A DNA stretch of 64,000 bases from Rhizophagus irregularis. Taxonomy: Eukaryota. The position numbers and the translations under genes were made by a program. Each line of letters starts with the position of its first letter. Position 1 is the first letter of the stretch. The notes under the pieces were generated by a model that was not told where the DNA came from, made no database searches, and was given only the letters and a program-made list of their open reading frames with translations. Shown piece after piece: positions 17,156-64,000 of the stretch. The DNA is taken from positions 3,162,001-3,226,000 of the forward strand of contig NC_089433.1 in assembly GCF_026210795.1 (NCBI RefSeq), in the 5' to 3' direction.

Positions 17156-17299
17156 CACGTCCTCTTTCTTTCTTCCCTTTCCCCTTTCCCTTTCGTTCCC
17201 TTTCCCTTTCCCTTTCGTTCTCTTCCTCCCTTTTCGTTTTATTTCCCTTCCCTTCGCCCTTTTCCCCTCTCTTTCTCTCCCCTTCCCCTTTCCCTTCCC

Positions 17300-18736: not shown

Positions 18737-19009
18737 CTCCGGGCATTTGGTGGGGTGTTCTTTTATTATATAACGAAACATTATTTAAGTTTCGTTTATT
18801 TTTTGTTTTTTTATAGGTTAAAGGAATGAAAGGGAAAGGTGAGAACGAAAGAAAAGAGAAAGATGAGAACGAAAGGGAAAGGTGAAAAATGAAAGGGGAA
18901 TGTGAAAAATGAAAGGGGAAGGTGAAAAATGTAAAGGAAAAGAGAAAACGAAAGAGAAGACGAAAGGGAAGGGTGAGAACGAAAGGGAAAGGGAAAATGA
19001 AAGGGAATA

Positions 19010-33712: not shown

Positions 33713-33953
33713 TAAAATTGCGAATGATTCCGCGATATTAGCCACCAGATTCTTACAGCCAGTTCCATTCATTAATGCGTAAATTTGCGTAGTCGTGTCT
33801 ATTCAAATAACTCAATCAATTGTAATCCATTCAATTAATTCATTAAATTTTTACAATGAATTTGCAATATAATTTTATTAGCACACATAATCTCATATAA
33901 ATTAAATAGTGAATTGATACTTTTCATCAAATTTGACGCGTTAATTTAGTAAC

Positions 33954-36934
33954 ATGAGTTTCAAATGCCCCCTTTGTATGCGAATATTCAGTCAACGCTT
34001 TGCATATACTCAACACGCCCAAAAATGCTTAAAAAATGTAGAAGTAGAAGTAGAAGATGATGATGATAATAATGATAGTGAAAAATATAGCAGTGAAATG
34101 GATACAAGAAGTAATCTAAGTAGTGAATATGAAAATGATAAAGTTGAGGTAATTATGTTATTCCAGATTATTCTTTTTAAAGAAAAAGCTCAAATTATAC
34201 TAACTCATTTTGGTTTATAATTTTAGGTGGATGATGATAATAATGTACAAAATATGTCATTTGACAGTATTGGAAGTGCAATATCAGAGATGAGCCTTGA
34301 AGATAGTAACTTTGAAAATATATTAGATTCATCTGAAGAGCCTGAAATTTTTGAAGAACCCAAAAATCTCAATACCAAAACTTGCACAGAATTTCCTAAT
34401 GATGCTTATAAAGATCTAATGTTATTAGTAACAAAATATAAAATAAACAATAAAGGTGGTAATGAAATAATACGTTTTTTTAATAAACATTCAAATCTTA
34501 CAGAATCACCATTACCAAAAAATATTGAACAGGGACGAGCATTTATGAATAATATGAAGTTTTCTAATTTAGAATTTAGTAAAGTTCTTATAACAAAACA
34601 TAAGGATAAAGATTATTTTCTTTATTATCAAAACTTAATACAGTGCATCAAAAATATCTTAACTGTTCCTGACATAACACAAAATTTTGCGCTATCTTAC
34701 GAAAACTATGAGGTAAATAGTAAATATTAGTTAATTCAATAATTTAAATAATATTTATTTTAATTTATTTATATTATTTTATAGTATAATAGAGAAAGTA
34801 TTTACAGTGAACAAAACACTGGAAAATGGTGGAAAACTACGCAAGAATCCTTACCTACTGGTTCCAAATTATTATCAATTATTTTATATTCAGATGCAAC
34901 AACTACAGATACATTAGGAAAAAGTCAATTGCATCCAATATATATTTCATTAGGCAATATTCCAATATGGCGTCGTAATAAACAGGATGCAAAGCAACTT
35001 TTGGGATATTTACCAATTTTAGAAGCTGCAAATAAAGATCTGGTTCGTGATACCTTTCATAAATCTTTACGTCATTTACTAGAACCAATTATTTTATTAA
35101 AAGATGGTATAGACCTTTTTATAAATAATGAAAATACCTGGTTTTATCCTAGAGTTTCAACTATTATTGCAGATTGGCCAGAAGCCGCAAGTTTTTGTTT
35201 AGTTTATAAATCCTCCAATTCAAGCCTTCCATGTCACTCCTGTTTAATTAAAAGGGACAATCTTGCAAATATAAACTTATCGGTTAACGATGTAATACTA
35301 AGAACTCATGATGAAATGCGTAAATATTTTGAAAATGATACACAAAAATCTGTTTGCATAGAATCTGTACCTAATTTTTTTTGGGATTTGCCGTAAGTAT
35401 GCAAAAGTAGAAATAATTATAATAACATATATATATATTAATTATAAATATTTATATTATCAAGGAATATAAATATCTACTTGGCTACTGTTCCTGACAG
35501 AATGCATCATTTAGATTTGGGTTTATTTCGTTATCAAATTATCTTCACGTGCGATATCTTAAAATTGCAACATGTTAATGGTAATAAATTAGTTGAAGAA
35601 GTAGATCGCCGTCTAGCAGCAATTCCACGTTTTCCCGCCATTAAAATTTTTTCCAATGGACTGCAGTCAATTGCAAGATTAACTGCTAATGAATATCGAA
35701 GTTTGATGAAAGTCATGATATTTGTTATTGATAATTTATATGATGAAAATAATAACGAAGTAGATAATTTTGTAAATAATGATGATCTTGTGAAATTGTA
35801 CGAATATTGGAATGAAATGTATATTTTAAGTAGATATGAAGAATTTAGTGAAAGTGACTTGGAGAAATTTAATGTATGTATTAAAATTTTAGTAAAATCG
35901 AAAATTTAAATTAAATAAATTAAATTAACATTTAAATTTTAGGATGCAATACATAGATGGGCGCGGATGTTTGTCAAGGCTTTTAAATTTGTTTCTCCTT
36001 CCAATTTGAAGTTGCCTAAATTGCATTCATGGGTTTATCACATTATTGACTCAATACGATCTTATGGCGCAATAAATGGCTATACCACAGAAACTTACGA
36101 AAGTCTCCACAAATATTTCGTTAAAATACCCTACCGAATTAGCAATAAAAAAGATGTCGAACCTCAGCTTTTACGAACTGTAAGTATTTGGAAATTTATT
36201 TATTGTATATATTTATTATATAACTTAAGATGGAAATTAAATTAATAGATAAAACGTCAAGCAATATCTATTAGAATGTCTCAACATTCAGTGAATCCGG
36301 CAAAAACACCTCGCACTTGTAAATTTTCTGCAAGACTCTTTGATTTCTCTTTACAAGATGCAAATACATTTTTTAATGAAAAAAAAGATTCCGTAGACAA
36401 TAAAATGCAGACCGGTTTTGCTAGATTTATAAGTTGTACGGATTCATATCTAGATTTACTTGATGGGTTCGCAATTATTGGTGAAACCCGAATAAACATA
36501 TACGGATCGGTAACACTGGAAAATGGTGCCATAATGCGTGCCACAAACAGGTATCATAATAAAGTATGGTTTAGCGACATAGCTATTTCAATGGATTCTG
36601 AAGAATCAAATGATTATATATCAGACAAAGGACTTTGTTATGGACAGGTATTTTTCCAATTTATGTAATAATTTATTATAAAGTATTAATAAATATTTAT
36701 TATTTATAGGCCTTATTGTTAGCAGAAGTATTAACAGACCCACCGCTAAATCTCGCATTAATTCAATGGTACGATTTTAAATCTAAAAGGAACCCATATT
36801 TATATGGATGTCCTCACTTAAAATTGATAGAATTATATAACTTTGTAGCTATAGAGTCTATACATGGTGTCGTTCACATAGTACCCCGATTTGATAAACA
36901 AAATGAATATTTCGTAAATAAATATATTTTTTAG
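33954..36934 (+). CDS. Plavaka transposase, 7 exons, apparently intact (852 aa)
   Basis: Exons 33954-34148, 34227-34712, 34785-35392, 35465-35873, 35943-36179, 36249-36647 and 36710-36934 join in frame (2559 nt). N-terminal zinc finger; motifs LYSDAT, HPIYISLGNIP, IADWPEA, PDRMHHLDLG, PKLHSW, TETYESLHK. Confidence 0.9.
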
Positions 36935-42829: not shown

Positions 42830-45025
42830 ATGCGAAAAAGCCGTCTTTCGTTAACTAGACCATTCTCTTTGCGAGAAGGTACAAAATTTTCTGGACGTAA
42901 TATTCTTCCAAGGCATAAGAAGTTAAGTTCGTGTAAGTAAAAATAAATTGGTATAAAAATAGACTTGAGCAACTATTATGTCTAAATTATATGTTTCCAA
43001 GTCCATCCGGATTTTTTATTATTCTTTAAAGTCAATATTCAAACAATATATATTAAAATTAAATGATTTTTTAACTGTTTAAAACTTTTGGTAGTACTTA
43101 CTAGTGTAGATAATAATGAAGGTAATGAAATGGAATTACAAGATGAAATGAACGATAACGTCGATAATAGTGAAGAAAATGAAGAAAATGTCAATAACTA
43201 CGATGAAGAAACTGATTATAACTCTCACGACGGAAATGAAGAAGAAAATAACTATGAAGAAGAAACTGATTATAACCATCATGACGGAAATAAAGAAGAA
43301 AATGATGATAACTACAGAGAAGAAACTGATTATAACTACCATGAAGAAAGTAACTACAGTGAAGAAAATGTTTATTATGATGATAGTAGCAATGTAGAAG
43401 ACAAGGACGAACTGGAAGATGATTATAATATGGAAGAGGATAATGTTATTGATGAAAGTGATAATGTAACTTTTAATTTATTTGTTTACTCCAAAATAAA
43501 CTAGATTTAAAGTTGCAGTCACGATCAGACTAGTTCTTACGATCTGAATCAGAATTGATCAATGAACCCATCCCTAATGCCGATGGCATATTTTTTTAAT
43601 GACAATTTTTCCATTTTAAAAGCATGAAGACACTATAGTTGATTCGTCAATAGGTTGTAACCATATGTTGAATATAGATGGAAGATTTGCACCTTACTTT
43701 GAAAATTCGACCTTTGCATTATTATTTTGTTGGATACAGAAACACAACATATGTAAGTCTAATTTTGCTATAATGAACCTATTTGACAATTTATTTAAAA
43801 GATTTACACTGATATATAGCAACGCATGCATATAACGACTTGGTAGAAGTACTACACCATCAAAATTTTAAAGTTAAAGATGTTGTAAAGAATATACGAA
43901 GGCTCCGACAATGGAGAGATCAGTTACCATTGATGCCAATACGGACGCACCCTGTTAGAATAAATCCAAAAAAGACGCCATCTACGTCTAAAGGAACAAA
44001 GTCTTGTTATTATTTGTCAATTTGTGATATTATTCAGAATATATTAAATAATCCGTCACTCTACAATACATTATACTTCGGACCGGGAATAAAATCTGAA
44101 GAAAAAAAGGAATATTAGCATGGGGATCTTTGGGCTGAATCACCATTGTTTGGCCAAGAAAAAATAGCCATCAATAGAGGTACTTTCGATTTATTATTAT
44201 TGTAAATGTATGTAACTTATCTTATACTTTTTTGGTATTTAGAAATTTATCGACCAAGTGAATTTGTTTTATATATAAAAAATGGTAATCGAAGATTTGG
44301 ATGAATACAATCAATAATATTGGTCAATGATGAACTTCAGGTAAAAATACAACGTATTTATACTTATAACGAATTACAAAATAATTTTCACTCTAATTCT
44401 CGATCAATTACGAAGGAATCGCAATTGTGGATGGTAGATCAATATTTAAAAGAAGGTAGTATTATTGCAAATACTTATGAGATCATTAGAAAAGTTAATA
44501 TTATGATTATTCGTGAAACAAATACTACTGACGGAATTTTTATTAAAGAAATTTTATACAAAAGTAATGGTTATTGGAAAATGCGAAATGTGACGCTAGA
44601 TTACAAGCATCCAGGCGAATATTTTATTCTAAGTTTACCACCACTACAATATAGGAATCTACGAGTTTTGAAGATATTTATTGATATTTACTATGATGAC
44701 TTCAGTACCTATCGAAATGTTTACCATTCCTTAGGCGGAGTTTATGTTCAATTGGGAAATATGCCATTCGATATAAGAAAACTTGTTCGCAACCATTTTG
44801 TCTTAGGTTTTATTCCCTTCGGTGGTTGTTTTGAGGATTTCATTCGTCCTTTCATTAAAGATATGAAGAGGTTGGAAAAAGGAACATTGATGAACATCTA
44901 AGGAATAGATTGCTGGATCATAGCTAGCCTTGGATGCGTTATTGCAGACCTATCCCAAGGAAACGATTTAGCAGGTGTAAAACGCCATGGTGCGATAAGA
45001 GGGTGTAGAACATGTCTGGTTACTA
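42830..45025 (+). pseudogene. CMC/Plavaka-like transposase (YYDDF family), 3'-truncated, with stops
   Basis: Acidic N-terminus, WAESPLFG, FIDIYYDDFSTYRNVYHSLGGVYVQLGNMPF, ADLSQGNDLAG, GCRTC; homologous to 55388-59021; stops at 44116, ~44302 and 44899. Confidence 0.85.
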
Positions 45026-45288
45026 ACTTTGCTGAAACTCCTAATTTTAAAAAATATTTTTACGATACAGTTATGTAATAGTATGATATAATAATAATAA
45101 ATAAACTATAAAAATATGATAATTTAAAAAATACTATTTAAATAAAATAAAAAGATGATAGGAAAACAATATAATAACCATAATATGAAAAATAAGAGAA
45201 ATAATTTTTTTTATTATACTCAAATTACGATATTAATACAATATTTTTATAATATTTTAATATAATAACATCGCAGAAATATTATTAA

Positions 45289-45662
45289 GGGTAGAGTGTA
45301 TCACGTGATACTTCATATAGATCGACTTGTCAAATTCCTTATTACATAGTAGCACTATTTTCTGTACAATATAAACTTTTGTAATACTTAACATAAATGG
45401 ATAAAATTTATATCGTTAGAAAGCCACAATTTTGAACTTTTATTTTTTTAATTAAAAAAACTTCTTTTATAAAAAAAATCTTTAAAAAACACCTAATGAA
45501 GTTGCGACTAGGCATATATGTTTTTGCGACTAGGCAATCTTGAATTTTATTGGTTGTTAATATCAGTTGTATATTTAAAATGTAAACAAATGATCAGCAA
45601 ATCTATAGTAAAATAATTTGCCACCCGCTACATATAAAAAATGATCGATATATACTCTACCC
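45289..45662. mobile_element. TTAA-targeting MITE with GGG termini (Kolobok-like)
   Basis: GGGTAGAGT(G/A)TAT...ATATACTCTACCC flanked by TTAA on both sides; purine termini fit Kolobok rather than piggyBac. Confidence 0.8.
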
Positions 45663-45764
45663 TTAAAATATCACTATTTTTTAATTTTGGCCAATCATTA
45701 CCAAAAAAAAATTGGCAAAAACATTTATAAGCAATTTAAGAAAAATACTTTCAAACTGCTGTAC

Positions 45765-46750
45765 TAATCATGGGTTTGTTTCAGTTTTTCAGAGTTGAAG
45801 CCAGATTTCCTGTAAATTAAAAAAAAAGTTAAATCATTTTTAATATAAAAAAGTTTACAATAATTTTTGAAATTCACTAAGGACCTCGATATCGAAGCTG
45901 GAACTAGGAGTACCAAATTTTTTTTAAAAGGGTTGAAAATTTTTTTGAACTTGCCTAGGATTCTAGTAATTCCAAGTCGGAGTTAGTTTTTGCAAAAAAA
46001 AAAATAAAAAAGAAATTTCATACTTTATTCGTAGTAAACCCAATAGAAAAGAAAAATCCCAAAGAGCCGCCAAATCTAAAATGTACCAAAAACCAAGAGA
46101 AAGAAGACGATGATTAGTAATGAAATCAAAAAGGAAAACAAAAACTACCCTTGTTCTGAAAGGTAGAAAAGAAAAAAAAATAAGAATGAACCTAATCTTA
46201 ATTTCCAGGAAAAACCGTCAAAATCTGAAAGAAGAGTCATTGAGACCTAAAAAAAGACGATGAATTCAGTAAGAAACTGAATAAAACCAACCTAAGATTA
46301 AAAGAAAAAATTGCCATAAATAAACCAACTGTCACTCCGAAAGTATACTCACAAAGCCCTAAAGAAAAGAAAACCGATATTAGTCAACTAATCAGAAAGA
46401 ACCAAAGATGAAAATTAGATTATAAAATGGATGAAAAAAAATTACCTTTACCTTTCAATAGCACACTCGACAACTAACACCTAAAGAAACAAAAAATCAG
46501 TTAGTACGAACAAAGACAAGAAATGATCAGAGGCGAAAAAAGCTCACCTTTACCTTTCTGGAAGAATCAAAGGAACAATAAACAAAAAAAGGGTAGTATG
46601 AAATAGAGACTAGAAACTAAAAGACGAAAAATAGCTTAGTACTCTTTCTCTTTCCAAAAGAGCCACCAGACAAAGACATACGAAATAGCACTAAACAAAA
46701 ATGGAATGCAATAATGTAATAAGGTAAAAAAATGAAACTTATTAACCTTA
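45765..46750 (-). ncRNA. Putative multi-intron non-coding transcript (irregular micro-exon array)
   Basis: On the minus strand, successive CTAA(C/T)-pyrimidine-TAG/CAG acceptors and GT donors around very short exons; GAAAGGTAAAG resembles GAAAGGTAAGG of the 4480-5100 array. Confidence 0.4.
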
Positions 46751-48293
46751 CGAAAAAGTAAGAATTCGATTAAATTATCGACTTGTAAAGTTAAGCTTTA
46801 ATAAAAAAGCTTAATTAAATTGAAAATCAAGTATCAATATTTTATTTTTATTTAATTTCCATGTGAACAAAGGGACAAACTATTCGTAAGCCTAAAGTAA
46901 TTCTAAACTACCAAACCGCCAAATTTGACAGCGCCACCTTGGTGTCAAAAAACAAACCTGTGGAAGGACGCATCTGAACACGTCCCGCCCACTACGCATG
47001 AGAGTAAAAGGCTAAGGAAAGAAAAAACCAAAGAAAGAAGAGCGAACAGAAGCATTAAAAAAAAGGAAGTTCAAACATATTCCATCTCTCGTATTATTCT
47101 TTCGTCTATTGACGCCACACGTAAATACTGTCAGGTGTGGAATGATGCATTATGTATCAGTCCGATATTGTTTCTGTCTTAATGTTAATCATGGGCTGGA
47201 GTGGGTACAGTATCTACCGATTCCGTATGAACGATCACTGATGGTGGTGTTGGATTCATAGTCTGGTGATAGTGTACGTCGTAAGAAGACGGACGGGTTG
47301 TTGATGATGTTCCGATCTTTGTCTGAAATGACGAAAGTAATGCCACTGCTTAAAAATCAAGTATCAATTTTAGTAAATAAACTGACCAAATAAGTATTTA
47401 ACGAAACACGTAACTGCCGAAAGAGTGCATGATCTCTAACAATAACTGATGGAGAAGATATAATAGCTGTGTACTCATCTTTCAGGTTTCACTTCATATG
47501 ATTGTCTTATTTTCCATAATTGTATGTTGCAACCTTACTTTCCCTTAACCAATTTTAATCTCAAATGACAGTATCATTTTGATCTTGATCAAAGGATTTG
47601 ATTATTGCATAATTATTCTTGTTTGTAGTTGGCTTCTTTACTAACAAAAGAACAAGACGAAAAAAAGTGGTGATATGTGTATATGCTTGTGTATAATGAA
47701 TTAAATAAATAAGAATAGAAACCATTGCACTACTTATGAATCCACCTTAGAAAAGGGCGAACCCTAAACTTCAGCTTCAACAACTAACTTAGATGCTATT
47801 AGTACTCAAGCATGGCAACCGGTTTATAGGTAAACTGTGGCAATAAACCCAAACACTACAAAATCAAAGGTTAGTAGAAAAGGGTTAGGGAAAATAATAT
47901 ACATGAGCACTGGTCGCATTTCAGTGTAGTTTTGACTACAAACTTCCGTAGCTCGTCATAGCTCGTCGTAGCTTATCGTAGTTTGTAAAAATGATAAGAT
48001 CAATTTTTATTTTAATCTCAGTTTATATAAACTGATTATCAATTGGCGTAATTGTATGGTATGTATACTAAATTTGTCTACAGTACACGTATACAATGTC
48101 TGATTTCGCTTTGGCTTGCCATATCTCATAGATGATAGATCTATATTTTAGATCTTAATCCAAATACCTAAAAATGCGAACAAAAAATAAAATTCCGCGC
48201 AGCAGATCTAGTGCAGGACGATGATTTATGGCATTTCACATAATATCATACAAGTCACAAAATTTTTTGATAAACTATATCGCTACATATTTT

Positions 48294-49963
48294 TGTTGTA
48301 CCTCAGATCGATTCTCAGATTGAAATCGTCATGTGAAGTGTGTGATGTGGATCATTGATAATCTGAGGTACTCAGTTTTTTAATCTAAGGCAAATAAATT
48401 TTTTTAAAAAAAAATATCTACTATTTTATTAATCTGAAAATAGTGTTATGTAACTACATAAAAATTATTTTGATTATTATGCTTTAATAGGAATGGTTCT
48501 TCACGCTAATTAGCTTCTTTGAGGTAAGTTTCAGAAGCTTTTATTTTTATTTTTATTTTTTTCTTTTTTGGAACGGTACTAACCATTTTTTTTTCTTTTT
48601 TTTTTAGCATTTCGGCCTGGACTCTCTCCCGGTAAATAGGTGTGCTATGATGTCTATTATGGTGTTAGTTTCTTTCTCTTAGAACGATACTAACTGTTCT
48701 TTTGTCTTTTTTTTAGCATTTTGGCCGGGACTCTCTCCTGGTAAATAGGTGGTGCTATGGTATCTATAGTATTAGTTTTTTCTTCTAGATACTAACCATT
48801 CCCTTTTCTTTTTTTAATAGGAATAGATTAATGGTTTTTAGAATAGGTAAATATTTAAGTAAGAAAACATAGGAATATTAGAAAAATGAAAATTCATAAT
48901 AAGAGGAACGAAAAGTTTAATGTAAAATCTGATATTAAATAATATAAAAATTATGTATAATCCATTAACAAATAAAATCAATGAATTAAGCATATATGAA
49001 ATTACTTTAAATTCAATTTCTTAATTATTTTTTTCATATAATACATCAGTAATAATGCATTTCTTGACTAATTTATTTTACATATAAGTATCATTTATTT
49101 TTGCCACGAACGTCCACTATAACATCTACTGCTACAGTCTCCACCCGCCTTCTTACAGCGACATTTATTACTATTGCATTCACCTTTACAATTACATATA
49201 CCCCCTGATACTAAACCAGCATTCTGAAGGCATGCAGCTTCTCTAATTGATATTTTGTTAGAGGGAATGACTTCTAATTCAGGAAAAGTTTCTGCTAAAA
49301 AAAAAAGACAAAAGAACAGTCAGTACTGTTCTAGGAGAAAGAAACCAACACCATAGACACCACCTATTACCGAGAGAGAGTCCAGGCCGAAATGCTAAAA
49401 AAAAAAGGCAAAAGAACAGTCAGTACCGTTCTAGGAGAAAGAAACTAACACCATAGTAGACATCATAGCACACTTATTTACCGGGAGAGAATCCAGGCCG
49501 AAATGCTAAAAAAAAAGAAAAAAAAACGGTTAGTACCGTTTCGAAAAGAAAAAAATAAAAATAATAATAAAAGCTTCCAAAACTTATCTCAAAGAAGCTA
49601 ATTAGCCGTGAAGAACTGTTCCTATTTAAAGCATAATAATTAAAATAATTTTTAGTGTAGTTACTAATGGGTTAAACTAGCACTATTTTTTCAGATTAAG
49701 ATATTTTTTTTTTTTAAGAAAAAAAGCGAAGCACAAGATTTTGAGAATTAAGAAAAGTTCGAACGAACTTTTCTTTCTTATCCTTGAAGATCTTTAATCA
49801 CAAGACTTTGAGAATTAAGAAAAGTTCGAATGAACTTTTCTTCCTTATTCTTGAAAATCTTTAATCACAAGATTTTGAGAATTAAGAAAAGTTCGAATGA
49901 ACTTTTCTTTTCGTATATCACATTGTTTCACCTAGTTGCGATCTGACGATCTGAGGCACAACA
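48294..49963. mobile_element. Internally deleted Ginger-like foldback element with ~500-bp inverted arms
   Basis: TGTTGTACCTCAGATCG...CGATCTGAGGCACAACA (TGT..ACA termini); 48430-48780 mirrors 49295-49700; central integrase C-terminal relic; TSD not resolved. Confidence 0.75.
49091..49294 (-). pseudogene. Cys-rich C-terminal fragment of a Ginger/KRBA2-like integrase
   Basis: ETFPELEVIPSNKISIREAA..CNCKGECNSNKCRCKKAGGDCSSRCYSGRSWQNK*. Confidence 0.7.
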
Positions 49964-50029
49964 TATATATGACATATTCGCAAAATTTTCTGCAGTATAA
50001 ATTTTAAGGGGGGCAAGTCATTATCCTAT

Positions 50030-50375
50030 ATCGAAAAATCAGTGCAATAAAAGTTCATACACGAGTTAAAGATTATGTATTTCGTGCTGATAATGGATTA
50101 CTTTTCTGTATGTGATCTCAATAGAATGGAAACATAAATTAACAAAAAGCATGCTTCCCAAAAAATTATTTTTGAAACAAAGGAAAAAGCCAAAAGTCAG
50201 CAAATAATACAAACTACTTGCTATAGCATCAAAAAAAGAAGTGATAAAGGATTCGATAGAAGCATTTTCTAATGCAGATATTCCTTTACGAAAGTTAATA
50301 GTTTACTTCTGTTTTTTTTAAAAACACCTCAAAGAAGGAGGCGCAATTCCTCAAGCAACAACTTTACGTCAGAAT
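50030..50375 (+). pseudogene. Degraded CGGBP1-like/hAT transposase fragment
   Basis: Frameshifted remnants FRADNGLLFC, AFSNADIPL, GGAIPQATTLRQ. Confidence 0.5.
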
Positions 50376-50623
50376 TTTCCCAAATTTTCACATTAAAAAC
50401 TTTTTTGGCTAAAGTAAAGATTCTTTAATCAAGTCTCTTAAGTCTCTTGCTTGAAAATCTCGATACATAACTCTTTATATATGAACGGCATTAGATCACT
50501 GTGTAAAATTCTGTTACCGAATAAAACTTGATGGAACATTACTTATAGCACAAAAACACCAAATTTAATATTTGGAAATATTTTTATTTTTAACAATTAC
50601 ATCTATTTTGTTGTGAAAAAAAA

Positions 50624-52235
50624 TTACCTAAGCAATTTTTTGAGATCTAAAGTGTTTACAATATCATGCTTTTATACAGAATGAACTTTAATTCCTAAGG
50701 TAATATGATCTAAAGTTTTTTTGATTTTATCCCCAGGAAGATCAACGTCTGCGCCATCTTTATCTAGTAGTTCATAATCAAGAACGATTTTAAATGATTC
50801 TATTACAAATTTTTTAAGTTGTTCTTGATCATCTTTTGACGATTCAAATTCATCTTTTTGAATAGCACGAAGATGCATAGATAAAATGTTTCTCCACGAA
50901 TCGCCAATGTATTCTTCAACCGTAACCTTTCTATAAATTTGGTTAATATTTTTATTTAATAATAATACAATAATCAATAGTAATTTATTTTGATTCTTAC
51001 TCTTCATCTTTTATATAAGTATTCACCATTTCTGATATTTTTTTCACATATTTGTGCCTATAGTCTGCCATTTTTAATACGCATTCGTGATGAATATTCT
51101 TTGCTGTCTCCTGATGAAGTTTATCCCTCAAATCTGGATAAATTGCACAAATAATCGCATTAAAAACATGCGAATTCGGTTTTCGACACTTTAGAAATAG
51201 GAGCTTGAGTTCTTCGATCAAAAGTTTATTATTTATACCCTTTTCTTTCTAAATAATGATAGACTTTTAATTCAAAATAAATTTACATTAAAATGAATTA
51301 TAAATATTTACTATACCTGAAGAGAAAGAGCTGGCAATTTACAATTTCTAGAATTTCCAGCCGTTACGCTTTTAGATTCCTTAAGAACACTAGCCAGCTT
51401 CAATATTGGTGGATGATCCGCAACAAAATCGGCAATTTCAAATTCTGTGTATGATTCTAAATTGTTTCTCCTTTAAAAAAACAAGAGGTATATTCTAATT
51501 AGTAAGGGCATTAAAGGTATAAGTGTAACGTAAGATGTGATAAATGTGTCCCAAACAGTAGTTTACTTACATGTTTGGACGATCTGGAATTAATATAGGA
51601 ATATCATTCGTTATTTTATCGAAATCGAATAAACTTAAATTTTCTTTTCATTTGAAAACACGTTAGTTTTTCATTCTAAATATTCATAGCAAATAGTTTT
51701 GTTCTTTTGACAAACCTTGCCCTTGTTGTTCAGGTCCTTCGACTGTCTCTAAATCTATTATGTCAGGTGGAATCTCTTGTATAGATTTTTTTTTCTTAAA
51801 TCTTGATTCAACGGTATTAGGTAGACTTCTTTTTTTCGGAGCATTCTTTTCTTGTTGAGATTCTTCTATAACAGCAGTTTTTATTTCTGGAGGAATTACC
51901 ATGACGAATATGTCTTTTTTAGATCTTGCTTCAGGTAAACTTCTGTTTGTTATAGCTAATGCTTGTTCATTTTCTTCTGCGACAGTTTCTAAGTCTGAGG
52001 ATATTTCCTCTATAGATTTATTTTTCTTAGTTCTTGCTTCATTTGTATTAAATGAACTTCTATTTTTTGTTATAGGTTGTTTTGATCCTTCTGCAACTGT
52101 ACCACCTAATCCTATAATAAAAGAAAAGAATATTAAGTTATAGTTTATAATTTATTTGAGATATTATTTATTAAGAAATTTATTTAGCTACATACTTTTT
52201 GATGTAGCATTTTTAGATTTTTTTTTGGGGGCCAT
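50624..52235 (-). pseudogene. Accessory gene of a CMC/Plavaka-like element (multi-exon)
   Basis: MAPKKK start; EELKLLFLKCRKP..ADYRHK homologous to the 5801-6500 segment; an internal stop at 50672. Confidence 0.65.
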
Positions 52236-53789
52236 TTTTATTTAGAATATTTAGAAAGAGTGTGGAAATCAGCTTACATTTATATTAATGCAGTAACCGC
52301 GTTAACTACGTGAAGAATCTTCTGATCACAAATGAATCAGAATAAAGTACACGCTTGAAATACGAAAAAAAGTTCAAATTCTTTGTCAAAAACTATTTTA
52401 TGAGGCAATTTTCATCAAATAAAGCAGTGTTCGATCTGACATAATAAATCACACGAGTTTATATTTGTCATTACGAAACAAACTTTACCCCTGACATTTT
52501 CAGCGATTGTTATTTATCTAGCTTTTTTTGTTCATGGTAAAGGTCTTGTGGATTGTTAAAAAATTTATTAAGTACGTCACATCTCCACATTTTAACGAAT
52601 TATTGAATTATTATTATTACTACTATTTTATAATTTACATTTTTATCATTTATATGATTTAGCGAAAAAAAATTAAATTGAACCTGGCAGTAAATTTAAT
52701 TTCTTACAAATGTAGAGATTGTTAAGTATTTGTTTACGAACTTAACAATTTATTTTAATTTGTCAGTGATCTTATGTTGCTATTTTGTAAATCACATTTA
52801 AATTGGAATAAAGAAATGAGCAAAAGTTTGTAACCGGTAACTTACATAATGGTAATGTATTGCAATGACAACCAATCTTTAGTATTCTGAGACAATATTC
52901 TGGTCAATCATGAACGCGGATCTGTCAGTGAGATATCTCAATTATACTAAAATTTATTGTGTGTGAAAGTTTTTCTCTCCCTTTACTGATTTCATCATAA
53001 CACTAAATTGAATGTAGCTTCGATAAAAGTCATGGAGAATTTAAATTCAACACAATGCCTTCATCGGATTGAATATTATGGTAATAGCCCGATGAAAACA
53101 TTTTTTTGCCATGACATAATGTATTTTCTTATATGAAAATTTAGCCAATAAAAACCATCTCCTCTCATCAATTTTGATAAAAAAAATTATTTTATAGCGA
53201 AAAAAAATCTTTCAAAATACTTTAAAAATTTTTTTTTTTAAAAAAAAGGAGCTAATAATATTACATATTACACAAGAAAACTTAATTCTTTTAGAAATGA
53301 TAACCCAAACAAAAAAATATTTTTTTTGTCGTATTACAAACAAAAAATGATACACAAAATAGAAAAATGTATAAGACATGCGTTCCTATCCAATAAAAAT
53401 GGAATGGGAATCCTAATCTATATCTGCCAGTTGGGAAATCCAGATCTTCAACATGTAAAATAAGGAGCAATCAGAAATTTACTTATTGTTGCCAAACCGA
53501 CAATTATGCCAATTAGACTTTATTTGTTAATGTGATATATTAAAATGGTATATAGAAAATTCACTGGTTGAGATTAGGGGTACAGACTTTTTCTTTTTTT
53601 AGCAGTGACGTTACGGCAGTTACGTCGGTAAAGTTTGTTGACAATTTTTGCATGTGAATTGTCAAAGCAAAATAAATCAATCGGTAGATCAGACTAGCCA
53701 ATTATGGTTTGTGCCGAAAGATAATCTTTTTAGCGTTAATAAACTTAAAAAAAAATTTTTCCTTTAAAAAAATTACTCTTATGGCTTCA

Positions 53790-54660
53790 TTTTTTAGGTA
53801 TGTATCAGCTTAGATTTTTGCGCTTTGGATCGGTAAGTTAGCTTCGAAACTTAACTTTTTTAGTAAATTTTTCTTTTGAAAAAACTTTTTAATTTTTATT
53901 CATAGATATCGGTTTCAAGGGGGGGAAGTATTTTTAAAAAAATCGTTTTAAACTTTCATTTCCTTTTTTAGATACCGGCTTATTTGGATCAGATCTTGGA
54001 TTTAGTAAGTTTCGGTTCAGAACTTACAATTTTATTTTAATTTTTTCTTTTTTTTAAATTCCTCTTTTTTTTGTAGGTATCGGTTTCTTCAGCTTTGGGG
54101 TATGGCAAGTTTTGATTTGATACTTCGAAACTTACATATTTTCTTTAATTTTTTATTAGTTTTTCACCTTTCTTTTTTTCTGTAGGTACTGGATCTTTTG
54201 GCATTGGACTTCAGACGTTGACTTCTTGGACTTCTTTGGTTGGATTTCTCAACATTGAACAGCACTTGGACTTTTTTTTCTGTAGGTCAGCGTCTTGGAG
54301 TATTTTCTCTTGGAACGATAAGTATCTTTGGTGGGTATGGTGATGTTAGCATTATTAAATTATACCAACGCCATTTTTCTTATCTAAAAATTTTTTTATT
54401 ATAGGACCTTCAGAACCAAAGGAACCCCCTGAGAGGTAATTATTAAAAGTAGGAGGGGAGTTTTTTTAAATTGAGAACGCTAGTAAGCTTTATTAACGTT
54501 TCACTTTCTTTTTTTTATTGTAGGGCCTACCAGGTACTTTGAAACTAATAAAACGGCCCATAGAAAAGAAGGGGAGATGTTTTAAATTGGAAATATTAGT
54601 AAATAATACTAATGTATTCTTTTCTTTTGTATGTTTTGGCAGGTTCATTGGATAGATAGT
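53790..54660 (+). ncRNA. Putative micro-exon/intron array with hairpins over the donors
   Basis: GTAAGTTAGCTTCGAAACTTAAC and GTAAGTTTCGGTTCAGAACTTAC donors, TGTAG acceptors, ~20-35 nt exons; followed by a TTTGACCTGTG right TIR ending at 55025. Confidence 0.55.
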
Positions 54661-55387
54661 ATATGTAGGATTTATCAAATTAGCTTATTGATAGATTGTA
54701 TTTTAAATTATTGTATTAGAATAATAATAAATATAATATTTGCAATCAATTCAAATCAGCACATTTCTATTAAACAATTAATTACAATCGAAAGATTCTA
54801 TTAGCAATCAGAAGATACTGGTTATATTTAATTTGACAAATTAAATAGTGGTCAAATTAAATAGTGCCAGGTGTGATTTATTTTTATTATGTAATATTAT
54901 AATTGGCACATCCGGTTATATTCTGATTTGCACCATTAATTGACCGCCTAACCGGCATCTGATCACCAAATAAGGATGACTATTGGCATCCAATTGGATG
55001 CCGATTTGTCAGCATTTGACCTGTGTATATATTTTGATAATCTTAATTCGAAAATTTAGTAAGCATTTCCTTTCTTCAAAATAAATACTAGCAAGATGTT
55101 GAAACCTAAAATTAAAATAAAAAACATATTTATATGATAAATTTTGAAGTTAAATACCTTGAAATGCTGCAATCCACATCAGCCAAGATGATATCTACAA
55201 AAAAAGGTTTGAATTTCGTTACTTAAAAGAAAAAAAATGTGTTGATCTGCTAAAATTGAGAATATTCAATAAAATTTGAATTTTGTAAGTTTAGGAAAAT
55301 TATTTTAAATATTGAAATAATAATTAAAAATATTTAATTTTACTACTTAATATTAATAATTTATAGAAATTAACTCTGAACTTTATT

Positions 55388-58300
55388 TTATATTGCATTA
55401 TAAAAAAATTCATTTAGTAAGTAAGGTTGTGATAGATTATGATTTCTTACTGAACAGTCATTAACACATTGATGAACAAAATGGACTTTAGGTATAGAAG
55501 TTACAAAAGAAATAGGAAAAACATTGTGCCATTTTTTCCTTTCTGTACATATTTTGTATTTTTGACACATCATTAGAGAATCAATACCATTTCTTCCTTC
55601 AATTTTTTCAAACCATTTTAAAAAATAAAAAGGGTATGTTTTAGCATTATTATAAGTATGTAAAAAAATGGCTTGTACTATTGCATATGAATTCCCTTCT
55701 AATTTCTCTTCAAGTTCTACTACATTTCCAACACTTATTCGTATTATTGATGATTCACCATCTTGGTTTAATACCTTATATGAAATATAATTAAAATAAA
55801 TAATTTTGGTATTATGAAGATATTCTGTAAAGTTAAAGTATTCTTTATAAGCTGTTTTAAGACCATAGTAAATATCACCATTAATTGATATATTTGTTTC
55901 AAAATTATTTTGCAAAATCTTATATTGTTTCCATTTAGCTTGTAGCTGAATTTCATAAATAGAATTATCTGGGGATTCAACTGCTTCATTAATTGCTATA
56001 TAATAAAATTTTTTAATAAGTGAAAATTAAAATTAAAATCAGTTAAATAAATTAATAATAAAACATACCTATTTTTTCAGTATTAGAAATAGTTGCTGAT
56101 GTAGCAAACCAAGAAGAAAGCAATAATCTAAAAATATTGTCTTGAAAATAACCATTTCCCAAAAAATTATTATAATGAGAATCCAAAGTACTATCTATGA
56201 TATTACGTAATACCTGTAAAGTATTATATCTTTTTATTAGATCCTTTTCTATCATTTTTCCATTTGTATGTGAAACAGTATTTTTAAATATTTTATGAAC
56301 CATTTCTTTAACTCCAATAGCACTATTTACTAATGTAGCAAATGTTTTAGCATGATGTTGTAAATGACCATTAATATGTAAATTAGGAAGATTAGTAAAA
56401 TCTTGAGGAAAAATCTATAAAATTAATAAAATAATACTCTAATTAATATTATATAATAATTAATAATATTATTTAATTTTAATTAATACCTTTGTAAGTA
56501 AAATTGCTTCTTGGTTTAATAAATCATTCAAAATTTTATATGATTCATTATTAAAAAATAAACTAAAATAAAGTTTAGCACATTTTGCTACTACTACCCA
56601 ACATTGAATTAATTTATCTATAATTCTATTTGTATTAACAGATAGATTTTCTTGTAATTCAATAAGTGAATTGTTTTTTAAATGTTTAATTTGTAAATAT
56701 TGTCAAAGAATATGTGGTAAAACCATAGCTAAATGCAATCTATCTGACATCATAAAACTTTGTCTATGTGTAATTGGATTTGGTAATTTATGCCATTGTA
56801 TAGGCATTTCAAATAACTTCCAATTTTTAATAAATTCATTATTTCCATTTGAATTAAACATATTAAATGTACAATCCATTAATTTTAATATTTTACCAGC
56901 AATAGCGTGATAGATATCTTGGGGTGATTGAAGAAGTCGATCACGTATTAAATTATCTAATATTGGTTTCTGATTTCTTAACCCAAATTTTGAACATAAA
57001 TTCCTTTGAATTGTTAATGAATCTGAATTTAATATAAGGTCAAATTCATCATCCATTAAATGATGATATCGCAATTCTTTAGATATATCATCAAAAGATT
57101 TTAAAGAATTATGATTTTCAATTTTACAAGAATGACAGCCTCTTTTAGCATTATGTCTCATAACTCCTACTAAATCATTTCCCTGTAGAAGGTCTGCAGT
57201 AACAATACCAAGACCTGCTATTACCAATATATTTTTACCTTGAATATTAAAAACTTTTCCTTTTTCTAATTCTTTTAATTCTTGTAAAAATGGACTAATA
57301 AATTCTTTAAAGTTTCCACCAAAAGGAACAAATCCTATAATAAAATGATTTTTTAAAAGTTTTCTCATTGAAAATGGCATATTGCCAATTTGTATGTAAA
57401 TACCACCTAATGAATGATATATATTTCGAAAAGTGCCAAAATCATCATAATAAAGATCTATAAATATTTTCCACATTGGTAAATTATGTGGATTTTGAGG
57501 AAAAGGACAATATTCTGATGGATAATAAAAGTATATTATATCTTCCTACAGTGCATACCCATTTGTTTTGATAGTGTAATATTCGATGGATGTCTAAATC
57601 TATAACATATATTTCTGATTTTCCATTTGTTTTGATAATTATATAAAATTTCAGCAACAATATATGTATAATAATTAGGCTCTTCTTGATCTTGTAACCA
57701 TACTGATGTTTTACCAACTATAACTTCAGGTTCAACTATTATAGGTTTATCTTCTAATAACCATCTTTTATTACTACTATTAGAATAACGATCAGCTGTT
57801 TGATATTGAGCTGGAAGTTCATCAAAAGTTAAAAATCTCTGCAATTTTAACTTTAATCTACTGTTATGTAGAATTATAGACGTTATTCTTATACAATTTA
57901 ATTGATTTGATGCCATAATATGAACAAAGTCTCCTGTAAAATATTCAACTAAATAAACAAATAATAATATATTTTAGTTAAATAATATTAATATAATTTA
58001 TAATTAATGAATACCAAATATTTAAAAAAATACCTGAATTTATCGTAATATTATGTTCACCAAATAATGGAGATTGCTGCCATAGTTCACCATGCCAAAA
58101 TTCACTTTTATTCTCTACTTCAATTCCTGGACCATTATACATTTTAGAAATTAAAAGTGGGTTAGATAAAGTTTTTTTTATGATATCAAATAATGATATT
58201 GCATATGCCTCTCTAAAAGGCTGAGAAGTAGATTGTGTTTTCATGTTAGATATGGGTATAGTGTATTTCTTGACTGTTAACAATGGTAATCTAGCTCGAC

Positions 58301-59021
58301 TATTTTTTTAAAGTATCTAATATTCGTAGGAACTTCTTTGACATCAAAATTTGGGTGGTTTAAAATTTTAACCAAGTCTTCATACGCATTTGTTGCTAAC
58401 AATAAAACGTTTTAAAATATTAAATAATATCTTAGACAAAATATTAATTTATTAATTAATTTTACTTACTTATCATATGTTTAGTAATCCAAGCAAATAT
58501 TGAGGCAGAAGTACTTAATGAAAAATAAGGTCCAAATTCACCATCAAAAGGAGAATTTGGTAATGTATTATTTTCAAGTATATTTTCAGAACCTTCAAAA
58601 TTTTTGTGTTCAACTTCATTATCACTAACAACATCATTATTTTCATCATCACTATCAACATAATCATTTTCATCATCACTTTCGTCATCATCACTTTCGA
58701 TATAATTATTTTCATCATCACTATCATCACTTTCATTGTCGCTATCAACATAATTATTTTCATCATCACTATCAACATAATTATTTTCGTTCTCACTATC
58801 AACATAATCAGTTTCATTATATTCAGTGTAATGTTCAAATCCACTCTCATTTGCATCGTCATTATTATCTGAACATTTAAAGAAAGTTATTTTTAATTCA
58901 AGATATAATATTTTAAATTATTTAAATTCGTTACCTTTTAATTCAGTAGCTACATCATTAATTGTATTGTCTATATTAGTTACATTATTACGAACTTGTT
59001 CTTTTCGTTGTCGTAAATTTA
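55388..59021 (-). pseudogene. CMC/Plavaka-like transposase (YYDDF family), full length, multi-exon, with frameshifts and stops
   Basis: Acidic N-terminal repeats, FWHGELWQQSPLFG, FIDLYYDDFGTFRNIYHSLGGIYIQIGNMPF, TADLLQGND, GCHSC, QDIYHAIAG, PNLH..EMVHKIFK, C-terminal VHFVHQC. Confidence 0.85.
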
Positions 59022-59258
59022 AGCTTCTATTCTTGCTTTTACTGCTTCTTCTTAAAGGCATACTAAATTTAAAAATAAAGGTAATTTTTTTTTATCAATT
59101 TAAAAATAAAAGTAAAATTTTTTTTTATCGTAAAAAAAAAGATCGATAAAAGCCATTGATTGGCCAGCAAAAATATCGATCTCACTCATGAAGACGATCT
59201 TTTATATTTCTGTATTTATGACATACGCAAAAAAATCACGAAAGTTTTTAACCACTAT

Positions 59259-60021
59259 CCCTTAAATGGTTTTGCCGGCAAATTTGCCTGCAATTTTTCA
59301 AAATAAATTTATATCCAAATATAAAGTTTGTCAATATGATTTGGATTATCCTATAATTCCGCAGCTATATCTACATTTTTAGCATCAATTGTATGGTTTT
59401 GATATGTGGTTAATGACTGCTAATCACCGAAATTAGTCACAAATCAACCTCAAAAAAATAACATCGGAATTTTTATATAATAAATTAATTTTCTTTACCA
59501 TAATATTCTGCTTCATTACAAAGCATTTTAATGTATTTTTTTATTTTTATTATGAAACTTCACACTCTAATGAACAAAATAGAGATGATAAAATTTAACT
59601 TTATGCATTTTTTACAAGTTCACAAAAATAATTCTTTTTTTAGGGTTCTATGTAAAGTCAAAATGCCACTTCTAAACATTAAAAATCATCATAACAAAAG
59701 TTGTTCATCATAGAAATTTCTACATATTCAATTAAGCTTTAATATAGCTGCAATCAAATCCCAATGAGATCGTCAAAGTTAAATGCAAAATTTTTCGAAA
59801 TTTTTTGTCATTTAAAAAATATAACTTTTGACCAATGGTCAATCTTCAATCTTATAATATGTAATTAATAAATAATGATTATTGTCACATAAATTATGAT
59901 TTAAGCTCTTTGCGAAAAAAAATTTTATTAGAATAACTTCATTTTTCATAAAATTAGATGAGAACTGAATTTTCGGTAAAATTGCAGGCAAATTTGCCTG
60001 CAATGTTTTACCGTTTAAGGG
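59259..60021. mobile_element. CCC-terminus MITE (763 bp) in the transposase-TERT spacer
   Basis: TIR CCCTTAAA(T/C)GGT..GGCAAATTTGCCTGCAATTTT; 2-bp TSD AT. Confidence 0.88.
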
Positions 60022-60037
60022 ATAATAAAATATTCTA

Positions 60038-63000
60038 ATGAATAATACAATTGCTAACGCTACACTAAAGACTAATTATTCAAATCTTACACTTTTGTAT
60101 GATTTACTTCAATCATCTGCTCATGATATTGATTTAATTAAAAAAGACGATGAAGAGGAGTATAAGCACCTTCTCCGAACGACTATTGTAAGCTCTAATA
60201 CCTGTAAAGACTTCTCACTGATTACAAAGGAAAAGCAAGAGATTGTGGGAAATATACGAAAAGAACAAATAGGTTTAGATACGGTGAGAATTTATATTGA
60301 TTTATTTCTTTGAGTGAACGTTTACTAATGAACGATATTAATTTGTAAACAATAGATATGTCCATTCATTTTTTAGTAAATAGACATGAACCAATAATCA
60401 ACATAGGCAGATTTGGGTTTACTAAGTCTAATAAATCTATAATTGAAAATCCGAAAGGATATCGAATCTGTGCATTAAATACTACAACTGATTTGATGAA
60501 GAAATCATACGCTTGGTTGAAACTTTATACGAGGTTGGCTTTTGCAAAATTTATATTTAATTAATGTATAAAAAGCATAACTAATTATTATTTTTCAAAA
60601 TAAATAGAATCGGTCAAGAAGCCCTGTGTTTTTTGTTGACAAACTATTCTATTTTTCTTGAGCTCAAAAATGGATGCTATATACAAATTATGGGTCCATC
60701 CATCAGTAGAAAATGTCCCATTGAAGATTTGAATAAATCTTTCAAAGCCGCTATCTTAAATGATCGTAAAATTATAAAAGTATCCAACACGAATTCCATA
60801 TCGAACTTGTTCTTTTCTCGTTCAATTATGTTTTTTAGGCCCTAATATATAATAAAAATGGTGAATTGTGGCACGGGCTGCCAAAAAATCGTAAGTACCA
60901 AAAAAATTCTTACTGTTTTTTTTGTAATAACTAATAAATAAATAATGATTTCATTAGATATCCTTAATGTTGTTAAGTTTTCATATCATAACGTTAATAT
61001 GTCGAATACCGTGATAAGTTATATATTTCCGAAACAATTCAACTTGAAAAACGTATTTACCTGTAGAGAAGTTTCTCATGCATTATATTATACTTATATG
61101 GATAGGAGAAAGGAAATAGATGTAAGTATATATATTTATTAGAATACTTATTAATTGGGTATTATTGTAAAATGATCAATCTATAGCTTATTTTAAAAAA
61201 TAGAATTTACATTGTAAAATTCCGGATTATTTAAAACATCTACTTCCGTATATTGATCACATAATTAAACGTCATAATATATGCCAGTATAGACATTTGC
61301 TTAATACTTACTGCCCGATCCAGGTAATTTTTTTGTGTTTATTTTAATCAAATATTGAATTATTATTTTTTCTTATAATCTGTATTAAATATAAAGGAAA
61401 CAAGTTTAGTTGAGTGCAATACCTATCAGGTAATATTTTAAATATTTTAAAATTATCTTAAATTATTATTAATTTCTAAAAAAAAAATTACTTAATAATT
61501 TAAACAGGTTAAGAAGTTTGTTGTCGGAGTTTTAGATTTTATATTTCCACCCGAATTTTTTGGTGACAAAAATAACAAAACAGTTATTTATAATATGATA
61601 AGTGTTTTTATTGAAAAACGTCACTCTGAAGTAGTATCTTTACATGAAGTCGTGCAAAATTTTAAGGTTATTGTTTAATTTTATTCTATGTATTAAAATG
61701 GTATTTGATTTATTAACGAAATATATATATTTCTAATATTTAGATTAAAAAATGCCAATGGCTTAAAGGCAATAATAATTTGGAAATATTGAAATGTACT
61801 GAAATGTTGTACGAATTAATTTGGTGGATTTTTGAATGTTTAGTAATTCCACTTCTCAAAGTAAATAGATATTTTAAATGATTTTATTTTTTATTTTATT
61901 TATAGTCATTAACAATTTCTATATTAATATTTATAGCTGAATTTTTATATAACAAATCATGCTAAACAAGGAAATAGGTTATCCTATTATCGAAGAGAGA
62001 TTTGGTTTAAAATGGTTGAACAAAATCTTAAATCCCTAACGAGTTCTGTATATGAAAAAATACCGTCAAAGAATGAAGAAACAATTTTCAAAAACAGGAA
62101 ACTGGGTTACTCCGAATTAAAATTCCTCCCTAAAGATAACAAAGGAAATCTGAGACCTATTGTTAACATGAAACGCCCGATGCGTACTTCCAATAATATA
62201 AAGTGACCAAAATCAATCAATTTCATATTAAATACGACGTTTCAGATCCTTAAATACGAAAAAGTAAGTTTATTAAATAATTTGAATTGAATGTTATTGT
62301 AAATATTTAAATATTAATTATTCTTTTTTTTTTATTTGGTAGGAAAAAAATCCTTCATTACTAACTGGGTCTATATTCAATTATAACGAAGTTCATGCTT
62401 GTTTAAAAGAATATAAAAAACACTTATCTAATGATGATAATCCACGACTTTATTTTGCTAAAGTTGATATTAAATGTTGTTTCGAAACAATTGATCAAAA
62501 TATTCTTATGGAAATAATCGAAAAAGAAGTTCTTACTGAAGTTTGTACAATAATAATTTCTTGTTTGCATAATATAATATCTTTTTTTAATTTACTAATG
62601 ATGATTTTTTTAGTACCAATACTCAGTGAATAAATTTGAAGCTATTTATCTAAAAGGTGGAACTATTTATAGAAAACGTGATAACTTTGTTCATGATTCA
62701 AGTAAAAGTTTTTCAACACATTATTTATTGTACTTTAATTTAATTATTTTATTTTTTAAATTTATTTTGTTTTTATCATATATATATATTTAGGTGAATT
62801 TTTATCTTTTCCGAAATACAGCGCCAAATTAACTCAAAATTATAAAAATGCAATTCTTATTGATAATGTGTATGAATCTTATATGGAAGTAGAGGATGTT
62901 CTTGAATTGTTGAAAGAACATATTCAACAAAATATTATAAAGGTAATAAATACAAGTGAATATTATTTAAATGATTTATTTAATTATTTTAACTGATTAA

Positions 63001-64000
63001 ATTTATTAATATAGGTTAATGAAGAATATTATAAACAAAAAGTCAGCATTCCACAAGGATTGGTACTATCATCCTTATTATGTAGTATATATTATGGAGT
63101 TATGGAGCGAGAAGAATTTAAATATATCATTAATGACACGAATGGGGTAAGTATTTTTAAATATTATACTTCAATGTACTTACTGATATATTTAATATTT
63201 AATTAATATTATAATATTATTTAAATATTATTAGTTACTATTGCATTTCCTTGATGATTTTTTGTATATAAGTACAAACAAAAATAATGTTATAAAATTT
63301 ATCACAACAATGCACCAAGATGATTTAAAGTATAAAATCGTTGTAAATGATAAAAAAAGTATGGTAAACTTTGATTTAACTGTTAATAATAATAAAATAA
63401 ATAAAGTTGATGGTTATGGTACGTATTTGCTATTTTATTTTATTTTATTGATTATTTGTTTTATTAATTGTATTGTAAAATATTAACTGAATTTTAATAA
63501 GAGTTCCTGTGGTGTGGAATATTAATTGATACTCGTAATTTGGATGTCAAAGTGGATTATTCAAGATACAGCGATTTATCCCGTTAGTATTCTATAATTA
63601 ATTCAAAAACTATTTATTAATTTACTTATTATTATTTATATTAAATTAGATATTGCTAACATTTTAACTATAAAATCGATAAAGACCCCTGGTACATGTT
63701 TAAAGAAAAAAATGATTGAGTAAGCACTATGATTAATATTATGCAAATTATTAATTTTGAATTAATATAAATAATTATTTATTCAGAATTTTGTTAGCAA
63801 AAAGCCATAAAATTTTTTATGATACTTCGCTAAATACAAGAGAAACTACCCTATTAAATATATACCAAAATTTTTTAATGGCTGGAATGAAATTCCACCA
63901 CTGTATAAAAGGAATGCCTAGACAAAAATCCCAAAGAAATAAAGATTTCGAATTTGGTAAATTTTGATTAAATTTTAATAAATTTAATTATTATTTTTTA
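60038..64000 (+). pseudogene. TERT: Telomerase reverse transcriptase (TERT/Est2) homologue, at least 17 exons, disabled; continues past the window end
   Basis: TEN/GQ (WLKLYTRIG..LLTNYSIF..NGCYIQIMG), YIFPKQF, CP (LLNTYCP), QFP, T (FYITN..YYRREIW), motifs 1/2 (LKFLPK, LRPIVN), A (KVDIKCCFETI), B' (SIPQGLVLSSLLC), C (FLDDFL), E (WCG) and CTE; frameshift near 60844; in-frame TGA at 62204. Confidence 0.93.

Follow-up and report, generated by a model that had tools for sequence, protein, structure and literature searches.

Can a telomerase gene become part of a DNA transposon? Among reverse transcriptases, telomerase reverse transcriptase (TERT) is the textbook case of one that has turned into an immobile, single-copy host gene. 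The question is raised by a stretch of 64,000 nucleotides (nt) from the root-symbiotic fungus Rhizophagus irregularis (contig NC_089433.1, positions 3,162,001 to 3,226,000), here called the window. At its right end, a TERT gene on the plus strand and a transposase gene on the minus strand form a divergent pair, with their start codons facing each other across a gap of 976 nt. A preliminary description of the window suggested that this TERT lies inside a transposon.

The best explanation, with a probability of roughly 0.7, is that the pair is a dead member of a low-copy family of DNA transposons in which telomerase is a working cargo. The window gene is a second, shortened TERT. Its copies repeatedly have the same transposase as their head-to-head neighbour, so this gene is likely to move as part of a DNA transposon. 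The central support is that TERTs of this type form a separate, multi-copy clade, adjoin the transposase repeatedly in two subfamilies (A and B), have been under purifying selection, and have introns in common with host-type TERT.

The TERT gene (60038..64000, plus strand) is a pseudogene of the element type, subfamily A, by its exon model, its Pfam matches and the private residues that it has in common with OCT59_025232 / UZO04868.1. The other gene (55388..59061, minus strand; records OCT59_025230/1 and GBC11775.2) is, by its motifs, a pseudogene of a DDE transposase of the CMCT clade, Plavaka-like and of the YYDDF type. The divergent arrangement first described holds, as does the TERT start codon, which the exon model places at 60038 on the plus strand. 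The transposase does start on the minus strand, but its ATG is at 59061 and not at 59021, where the minus strand reads TAA. The gap had been put at 1016 nt, and at about 250 nt without a later insertion; the figures are 976 and 209 nt.

The spacer between the start codons (59062..60037, 976 nt) is a candidate bidirectional promoter. The later insertion, already recognised in the preliminary description, is a miniature inverted-repeat transposable element (MITE) at 59258..60022 (765 nt), with terminal inverted repeats, a TA duplication on both sides and its 3' edge 15 nt from the TERT ATG. In three of four runs the summed contig depth over the MITE is several-fold that over its flanks, contig depth being taken as distinct from copy number. 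The remaining 209 nt contain no element terminus visible by eye, in agreement with the first description. Two other TERT copies, GET59305.1 (the OCT59_009111/2 locus) and CAB4475098.1, have MKTIFYIS as their predicted first exon. The same peptide is encoded at 59188-59211 of the window, at a distance of 127 nt from the transposase ATG, which means that these two copies share part of the window spacer. The surroundings of the pair consist of transposon relics, and no host gene was recognised in the window.

A second telomerase gene

The TERT gene has 17 visible exons between 60038 and 63956, with about 900 codons and GT-AG introns of 65-92 nt. One exon of 89 residues has 98-100% identity to R. 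irregularis proteins. It extends past the window end, with about 85 further residues beyond 64000 (the C-terminal remainder is taken from record P0002). Contigs of one run, guessed to be RNA, cross the introns. The domains follow one another as TEN, a short linker, TRBD, RT and the start of the C-terminal extension. The window exons, like the matching record P0011 (OCT59_025232), have hits to Pfam TEN_TERT, Telomerase_RBD and RVT_1. All domains of the TERT family are present in order (PF11474, PF12009 and PF00078 on P0011; PF21399 on P0006 and P0002). The window copy keeps the catalytic aspartates of motifs A and C (KVDIK and FLDDF). Alignment with host TERTs also locates the RNA-binding motifs of the T, CP and QFP types.

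Both genes of the pair are decayed, as had been noticed at the outset. In TERT, the acceptor of intron 1 reads AA, one base is lost near 60839, and a TGA stands at 62204-62206. Private amino-acid differences of the window TERT, which are also present in OCT59_025232 / UZO04868.1 (P0011), fit C>T or G>A in 14 of 15 cases, with partner codons inferred from proteins. Record P0195 was considered as a third TERT type (64%) and rejected; it is the window haplotype with skipped exons.

The host TERT is a different gene. A search with the TRBD-RT region found a distinct R. irregularis TERT of 1320-1321 amino acids (aa), OCT59_030134 = GBC53177.1. It is intact and full length, and orthologues of it occur in R. 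clarus, Funneliformis, Diversispora and others. The Funneliformis records with numbers adjacent to the host-type TERT are phosphoglycerate kinase, unlike the neighbour of the element TERT. In metagenome locus L075, the TERT is also of the host type and is followed, on the same strand (about 2950-3163), by the apparent start of a phosphoglycerate kinase, in line with the Funneliformis numbering.

The host TERT of Glomeraceae (OCT59_030134 and its orthologues) and the element TERT have the same four domains, catalytic motifs and tested intron positions. They differ in sequence, in length, in copy number and in having or lacking a transposase beside them. The A and B subfamilies are 75-81% identical to each other, and 57-60% identical to Rhizophagus host TERTs. 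From TEN to the next conserved block there are 35-36 aa in A and B, compared with 277-382 aa in host genes, such that A and B are without about 310 aa of the TEN-TRBD linker. All eight of the tested acceptor sites of the window TERT match those of L075, so the element TERT arose from genomic DNA and not from spliced RNA.

The separate clade that the preliminary description had expected of a transposon-borne gene is found. A and B together stand apart from the host TERTs with a support of 1.0 (FastTree) and 100 (IQ-TREE). The approximately unbiased (AU) test rejects a tree in which A and B group with only the R. irregularis host gene (p 0.0003), and with it a recent origin from that gene. Two placements of the clade fit, either as the sister group of Rhizophagus and Funneliformis together (AU p 0.58) or of Rhizophagus only (AU p 0.46), and the capture may have come before or after the Funneliformis split.

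Nor is the window TERT single copy, as had been allowed for if it were simply the host gene. It lacks the single-copy state, species-tree placement and long linker of host-TERT orthologues, and the host TERT (OCT59_030134) lies elsewhere. In the OCT59 assembly, A-type TERTs are on three scaffolds (3.46, 4.50 and 5.83 Mb). The records of strain DAOM 181602=197198 place A-type TERT on two contigs and B-type on a third. This strain is homokaryotic, its assembly haploid and its telomeres of TTAGGG repeats, according to the available part of PMC10234402. The multiple TERT loci are therefore not alleles. Copies of type A are about 96-99% identical across long overlaps, and a B-type fragment also occurs in R. 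diaphanus. Several R. irregularis records annotated as telomerase are such element copies, not the host gene.

The element TERT evolved under purifying selection between A and B. The window TERT was compared with the B-type metagenome locus L021 over 556 codons. The NG86 method gives dN 0.097 and dS 0.49, a ratio of 0.20 (bootstrap 0.15-0.27). With GY94, which allows for transition bias, omega is 0.17 and omega = 1 is rejected (2dL 115), a result in favour on the dN/dS check proposed earlier. Substitutions at 0-fold sites occur at about 0.3 times the rate of those at 4-fold sites, in both transitions and transversions. Since A and B each adjoin their own transposase subfamily, selection most simply acted after the two genes had been joined.

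The transposase and its linkage to telomerase

The transposase has an acidic N-terminus, a BAH-like domain, and then the motifs D (YYDDF), D (ADLPQG), C(2)C, H(3)H and E (KEMVH). The window copy has a frameshift near 58305, a stop at 56703-56705, a P>L change in ADLPQG, a motif that is invariant elsewhere, and a 68-nt insertion near 57516-57584. This last lesion is skipped by contigs of all four runs and is missing from GBC11775.2 of the same haplotype, so it may be a peculiarity of the assembly, or else a very recent insertion.

The close relatives of the transposase fall into subfamily A, with 94-98% identity among themselves, subfamily B, 82-86% identical to A, and two further subfamilies at 70-74%. 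D436/D437 and D520 are present in 61 of 61 relatives, C539 in 59 and C542 in 56 of the same 61. In rows without a gap, E791 is found in 22/22, H767 in 28/38 and H771 in 26/33. According to the available part of PMC12730594, the CMCT clade is defined by a DDE triad whose second D and E are separated by C(2)C and H(3-4)H. These motifs are all present in the window transposase family, where the residues named are the putative catalytic ones.

A profile of the family matches the window's true Plavaka transposase (34785-35393) across the second D and C(2)C with E 1.7e-6, and a later segment with E 0.04. The Plavaka domain PF18759 matches neither the window transposase exons nor any of the 13 transposase records scanned, the window's own included. 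Among the 61 relatives, three have weak matches to it (best E 1.2e-5). The protein is thus Plavaka-like below the strict Plavaka cut-off, and by its sequence it is a distinct YYDDF lineage. A low-confidence fold model of a B-type relative (pLDDT 54) matches BAH domains well and, weakly, RAG1/Transib, whose fold is a mark of the CMCT clade. In this model, Foldseek gives E 1.4e-3 against RAG1 over about 450 columns, and VIA gives Z 7.6 for BbRAGL (rmsd 8.1, 373 aligned) and 7.2 for HzTransib (rmsd 7.3, 244 aligned), both within the chance range. A sequence search of the PDB with the transposase profile gave no match.

The preliminary description asked whether other TERT copies lie next to the same transposase. 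They do, in two diverged subfamilies. The count covers 13 TERT loci on contigs of at least 17 kb, with GBC and OCT59 records of one locus counted once; it leaves out six A/B records on short or unpaired contigs (0.7-32 kb), P0195 and unnamed fragments. Adjacency means an A or B transposase record within 1-5 accession numbers in the public gene numbering, on a contig of equal length. Among the matches listed, five of the 13 loci have such a neighbour of the matching type.

The first of these is the window locus, where OCT59_025230/1 (transposase) precedes OCT59_025232 (TERT). At the second, OCT59_018480 is paired with OCT59_018478/9, and in a second assembly GBC42270 with GBC42268/9; within OCT59_018478-80, the N-terminal TERT piece is the one that adjoins the transposase. 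The other two A-type pairs are PKC00024 with PKC00025 and CAB4465045 with CAB4465040. Finally, the B-type TERT CAB4413180/1 is found with the B-transposase CAB4413178. The orientation of the pairs outside the window follows from the order of N- and C-terminal pieces only. Among tens of thousands of genes, chance adjacency is negligible. Seen from the other gene, every A-type transposase record on long contigs with a traceable neighbour adjoins a TERT. The A and B transposases are sisters (support 0.94) with 82-86% identity, and the A and B TERTs are likewise sisters.

Two A-type TERT loci, CAB4475098 and CAB4475361/3, are on one 3.7-Mb contig, and their likely OCT59 counterparts are on different scaffolds. 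This placement may reflect a rearrangement between copies or a misassembly. Metagenome contigs contain 80 TERT loci, none of which (0/80) has a match to the seven transposase queries. The only close relatives there are L021, which is 2.9 kb long and starts inside TERT, and L075. Viral contigs gave no match for TERT or transposase, and prokaryote genomes gave none.

Proposed mechanism and rival explanations

How might a transposon use telomerase? The TERT would have entered the element in the form of genomic DNA, before the split between R. irregularis and R. clarus. It would then have lost most of its linker and been copied along with the transposase, and the 209-nt spacer may drive joint expression of both genes. 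The cargo TERT would borrow the telomerase RNA of the host, as suggested by the retained RNA-binding motifs and by the part searched with Rfam (44000-64000), which contains no telomerase RNA. Such an enzyme could place TTAGGG repeats on the DNA ends that its own transposase creates, such that the excised linear element would be capped or the donor break healed. Either outcome would make it easier for the element, or for its carrier nucleus, to survive transposition.

Telomere addition at transposase-made ends is the favoured mechanism, offered as a tentative proposal. The wider idea is equally speculative: a cut-and-paste transposon family of arbuscular mycorrhizal fungi may encode its own streamlined telomerase and give telomeres to the ends made by its transposase, for instance to form a linear mini-chromosome that persists and moves among the nuclei of one cytoplasm. 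A telomere-template-like 10-mer, AGGGTTAGGG, at 47881-47890 has no Rfam match and probably occurs by chance.

Several points weigh against a telomerase-bearing transposon. No element ends, target-site duplication or empty site were found, and a comparison of 49961-55387 with 59062-64000 gave no inverted-repeat pair beyond chance. None of the A/B gene models was seen both full length and intact. Eight of the 13 loci are without a neighbouring transposase record among the matches listed. Two of these eight share the spacer, which leaves six with no partner among those matches, which would miss short fragments. Outside the window, adjacency comes from accession numbers and not from DNA, and the pairing in B comes from one contig. 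Nor are the five linked loci all independent, because CAB4465040 groups with the window and looks allelic; PKC00025 may also be allelic to another listed locus. Finally, the introns, 87% A+T, differ between A and B at 13.8% of sites, a divergence (0.138) that is 1.5 times the nonsynonymous one.

One rival accepts TERT as real cargo and changes whom it serves. Selection may have favoured a gain for the host nucleus, in the form of additional telomerase under weaker control at its normal chromosome ends, or else an activity unrelated to telomeres. This is about as probable as the favoured mechanism. Purifying selection shows only that the protein mattered, and a telomere added at an internal donor break would, by established logic, remove the distal arm. 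The lost linker also has short segments conserved in the host TERTs of Rhizophagus and Funneliformis, which could be regulatory. However, the host already has an intact, full-length TERT, and all cargo copies seen are broken, which suits a gene that serves the element rather than the host. The tight head-to-head layout likewise suggests co-expression with the transposase.

An unlikely alternative is that an old paralogue of the host TERT came to lie beside a transposase, and that segmental duplication, or carriage within a larger mobile block, spread the pair, rather than this transposase. The lack of mapped ends and of a target-site duplication would be expected in this case. The loci are also few, several are apparently shared between strains, and over 44-62 kb the contigs from other runs differ by about 1%, with no abrupt edge in the listed pieces. 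Nevertheless, the pairing persists in two subfamilies in which both genes have diverged by 15-25%. In addition, all traceable A-type transposases on long contigs adjoin TERT, and the pair is set among transposon relics rather than recognisable host genes.

That a fragment of a host gene was picked up passively and has no function, as happens in Pack-type elements, is very improbable and largely refuted. The window copy is decaying neutrally, as 14 of its 15 private differences being C>T or G>A would fit, but it is a whole gene with all domains. Its subfamily shows an omega of 0.17 against B, and it keeps catalytic motifs and intron positions despite about 40% divergence from the host gene. A host TERT with a chance transposon insertion beside it, or an assembly artefact, would be in keeping with the transposon-dense surroundings and can be dismissed, since the host TERT is another gene, contigs of run X1 have zero differing letters over most of 44-62 kb, and the pair recurs in several assemblies.

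A telomerase-bearing transposon would join other mobile elements linked to telomeres, such as the telomere-bearing elements of ciliates, Penelope/Athena retroelements, Drosophila HeT-A/TART and the telomerase RNA borne by herpesviruses. These use telomere-making chemistry or sequence, as proposed here. To our knowledge, none of them encodes a true TERT with TEN and TRBD in a cut-and-paste DNA transposon.

Functional cargo is known from fungal CMCT transposons (Plavaka, EnSpm and ESTA among them), which carry TET/JBP genes (PMC12730594, available part). As far as that part goes, the two systems are alike in that a fungal DDE element has a whole host-derived enzyme gene beside its transposase, kept in frame, and in the C(2)C and H(3-4)H motifs of the transposase. 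The cargo of the present element differs in being a telomerase reverse transcriptase, and its host belongs to the Glomeromycota. The TET/JBP elements also have mapped ends and target-site duplications, whereas none were mapped for the TERT pair. The marks of TET-type cargo, linkage at several loci and a reading frame under selection, are both found for TERT.

Plavaka elements are reported to be prevalent in R. irregularis (PMC11075540). The likeness of the window transposase to them lies in the profile similarity given above (E 1.7e-6), and the difference in its having no PF18759 match. The main text of that paper has no occurrence of "telomer", "cargo" or "captured". Similarly, Rhizophagus does not occur in the available part of PMC12730594, nor TERT in the main text of PMC10234402, and the available text of PMC9498494 has nothing on TERT. 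In the literature covered, which takes in few subscription journals and some papers in part, no TERT of these fungi is described as multi-copy or as borne by a transposon.

A true TERT thus appears to have re-entered a mobile element and to have been kept there by selection. If confirmed, this would provide a testable link from transposase-made breaks to the formation of new telomeres, and a possible cause of changes in karyotype and at chromosome ends in this much-studied plant symbiont. A further gain is a natural fungal telomerase with a minimal linker, beside its host counterpart.

Possible extent of the element and neighbouring relics

An accessory open reading frame (ORF), here called gene X, is located at 50675..52237 on the minus strand. 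It is 50-65% identical to an ORF fused before the transposase of a sister family (PKC71028.1, PKY29942.1), which suggests that the element reaches left to about 50.6 kb, with gene X possibly as its third gene. The gene order differs from that of the sister family, and X may belong to another relic. It has no Pfam match. A distant relative of X (25%) occurs at 5795-6304, close to another stretch of transposase-like sequence, and ORFs of this kind may thus be widespread as accessory genes. Elements of the CMCT clade have CA..TG termini and target-site duplications of 2-5 nt, and Plavaka in the strict sense has TGT..ACA or CATCA..TGATG termini. A CACTG near 50498 is no more than a candidate for the left end of the TERT element, whose right end would lie past 64000.

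Other candidate landmarks were rejected. Repeats at 49729-49910 are not subterminal repeats, as they lie inside another element, and those at 53750-54660 look like splice-signal chains. A rise in contig depth near 55.3 kb was dropped as an element boundary, since it coincides with the alignment of divergent transposase copies.

The region 53750..54660 (plus strand) is a series of very short pieces that resemble exons and have strong splice signals, with no long ORF and no Rfam match. A similar series, with strong repeated splice signals and again no long ORF, is found at 17300-19600. Both are possibly spliced non-coding transcripts of mobile elements.

The preliminary description mentioned two other Plavaka-like transposases in the window, each with a divergent partner. 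Both exist, and a divergent minus-strand reading frame lies to the left of each. One is the true Plavaka transposase gene (about 33945-36900; Pfam Plavaka E 1e-24). The other, at about 43067-45030, is a truncated second transposase of the YYDDF type, with about 40-49% identity to the family.

The remaining relics are of other kinds. A non-autonomous element at 48295-49962 has inverted ends of 16 nt (15/16 match) and a large foldback at about 48450-49664; it holds the repeats at 49729-49910, which are palindromic tandem repeats of 67 nt. A decayed fragment at 50020-50400, just before the CACTG, has no Pfam match and resembles a hAT/CGGBP1-like transposase. Further left, a LINE-like element at 11821-24123, with zinc knuckles, endonuclease, RT and RNase H, is split by a repeat block at about 15600-20500.

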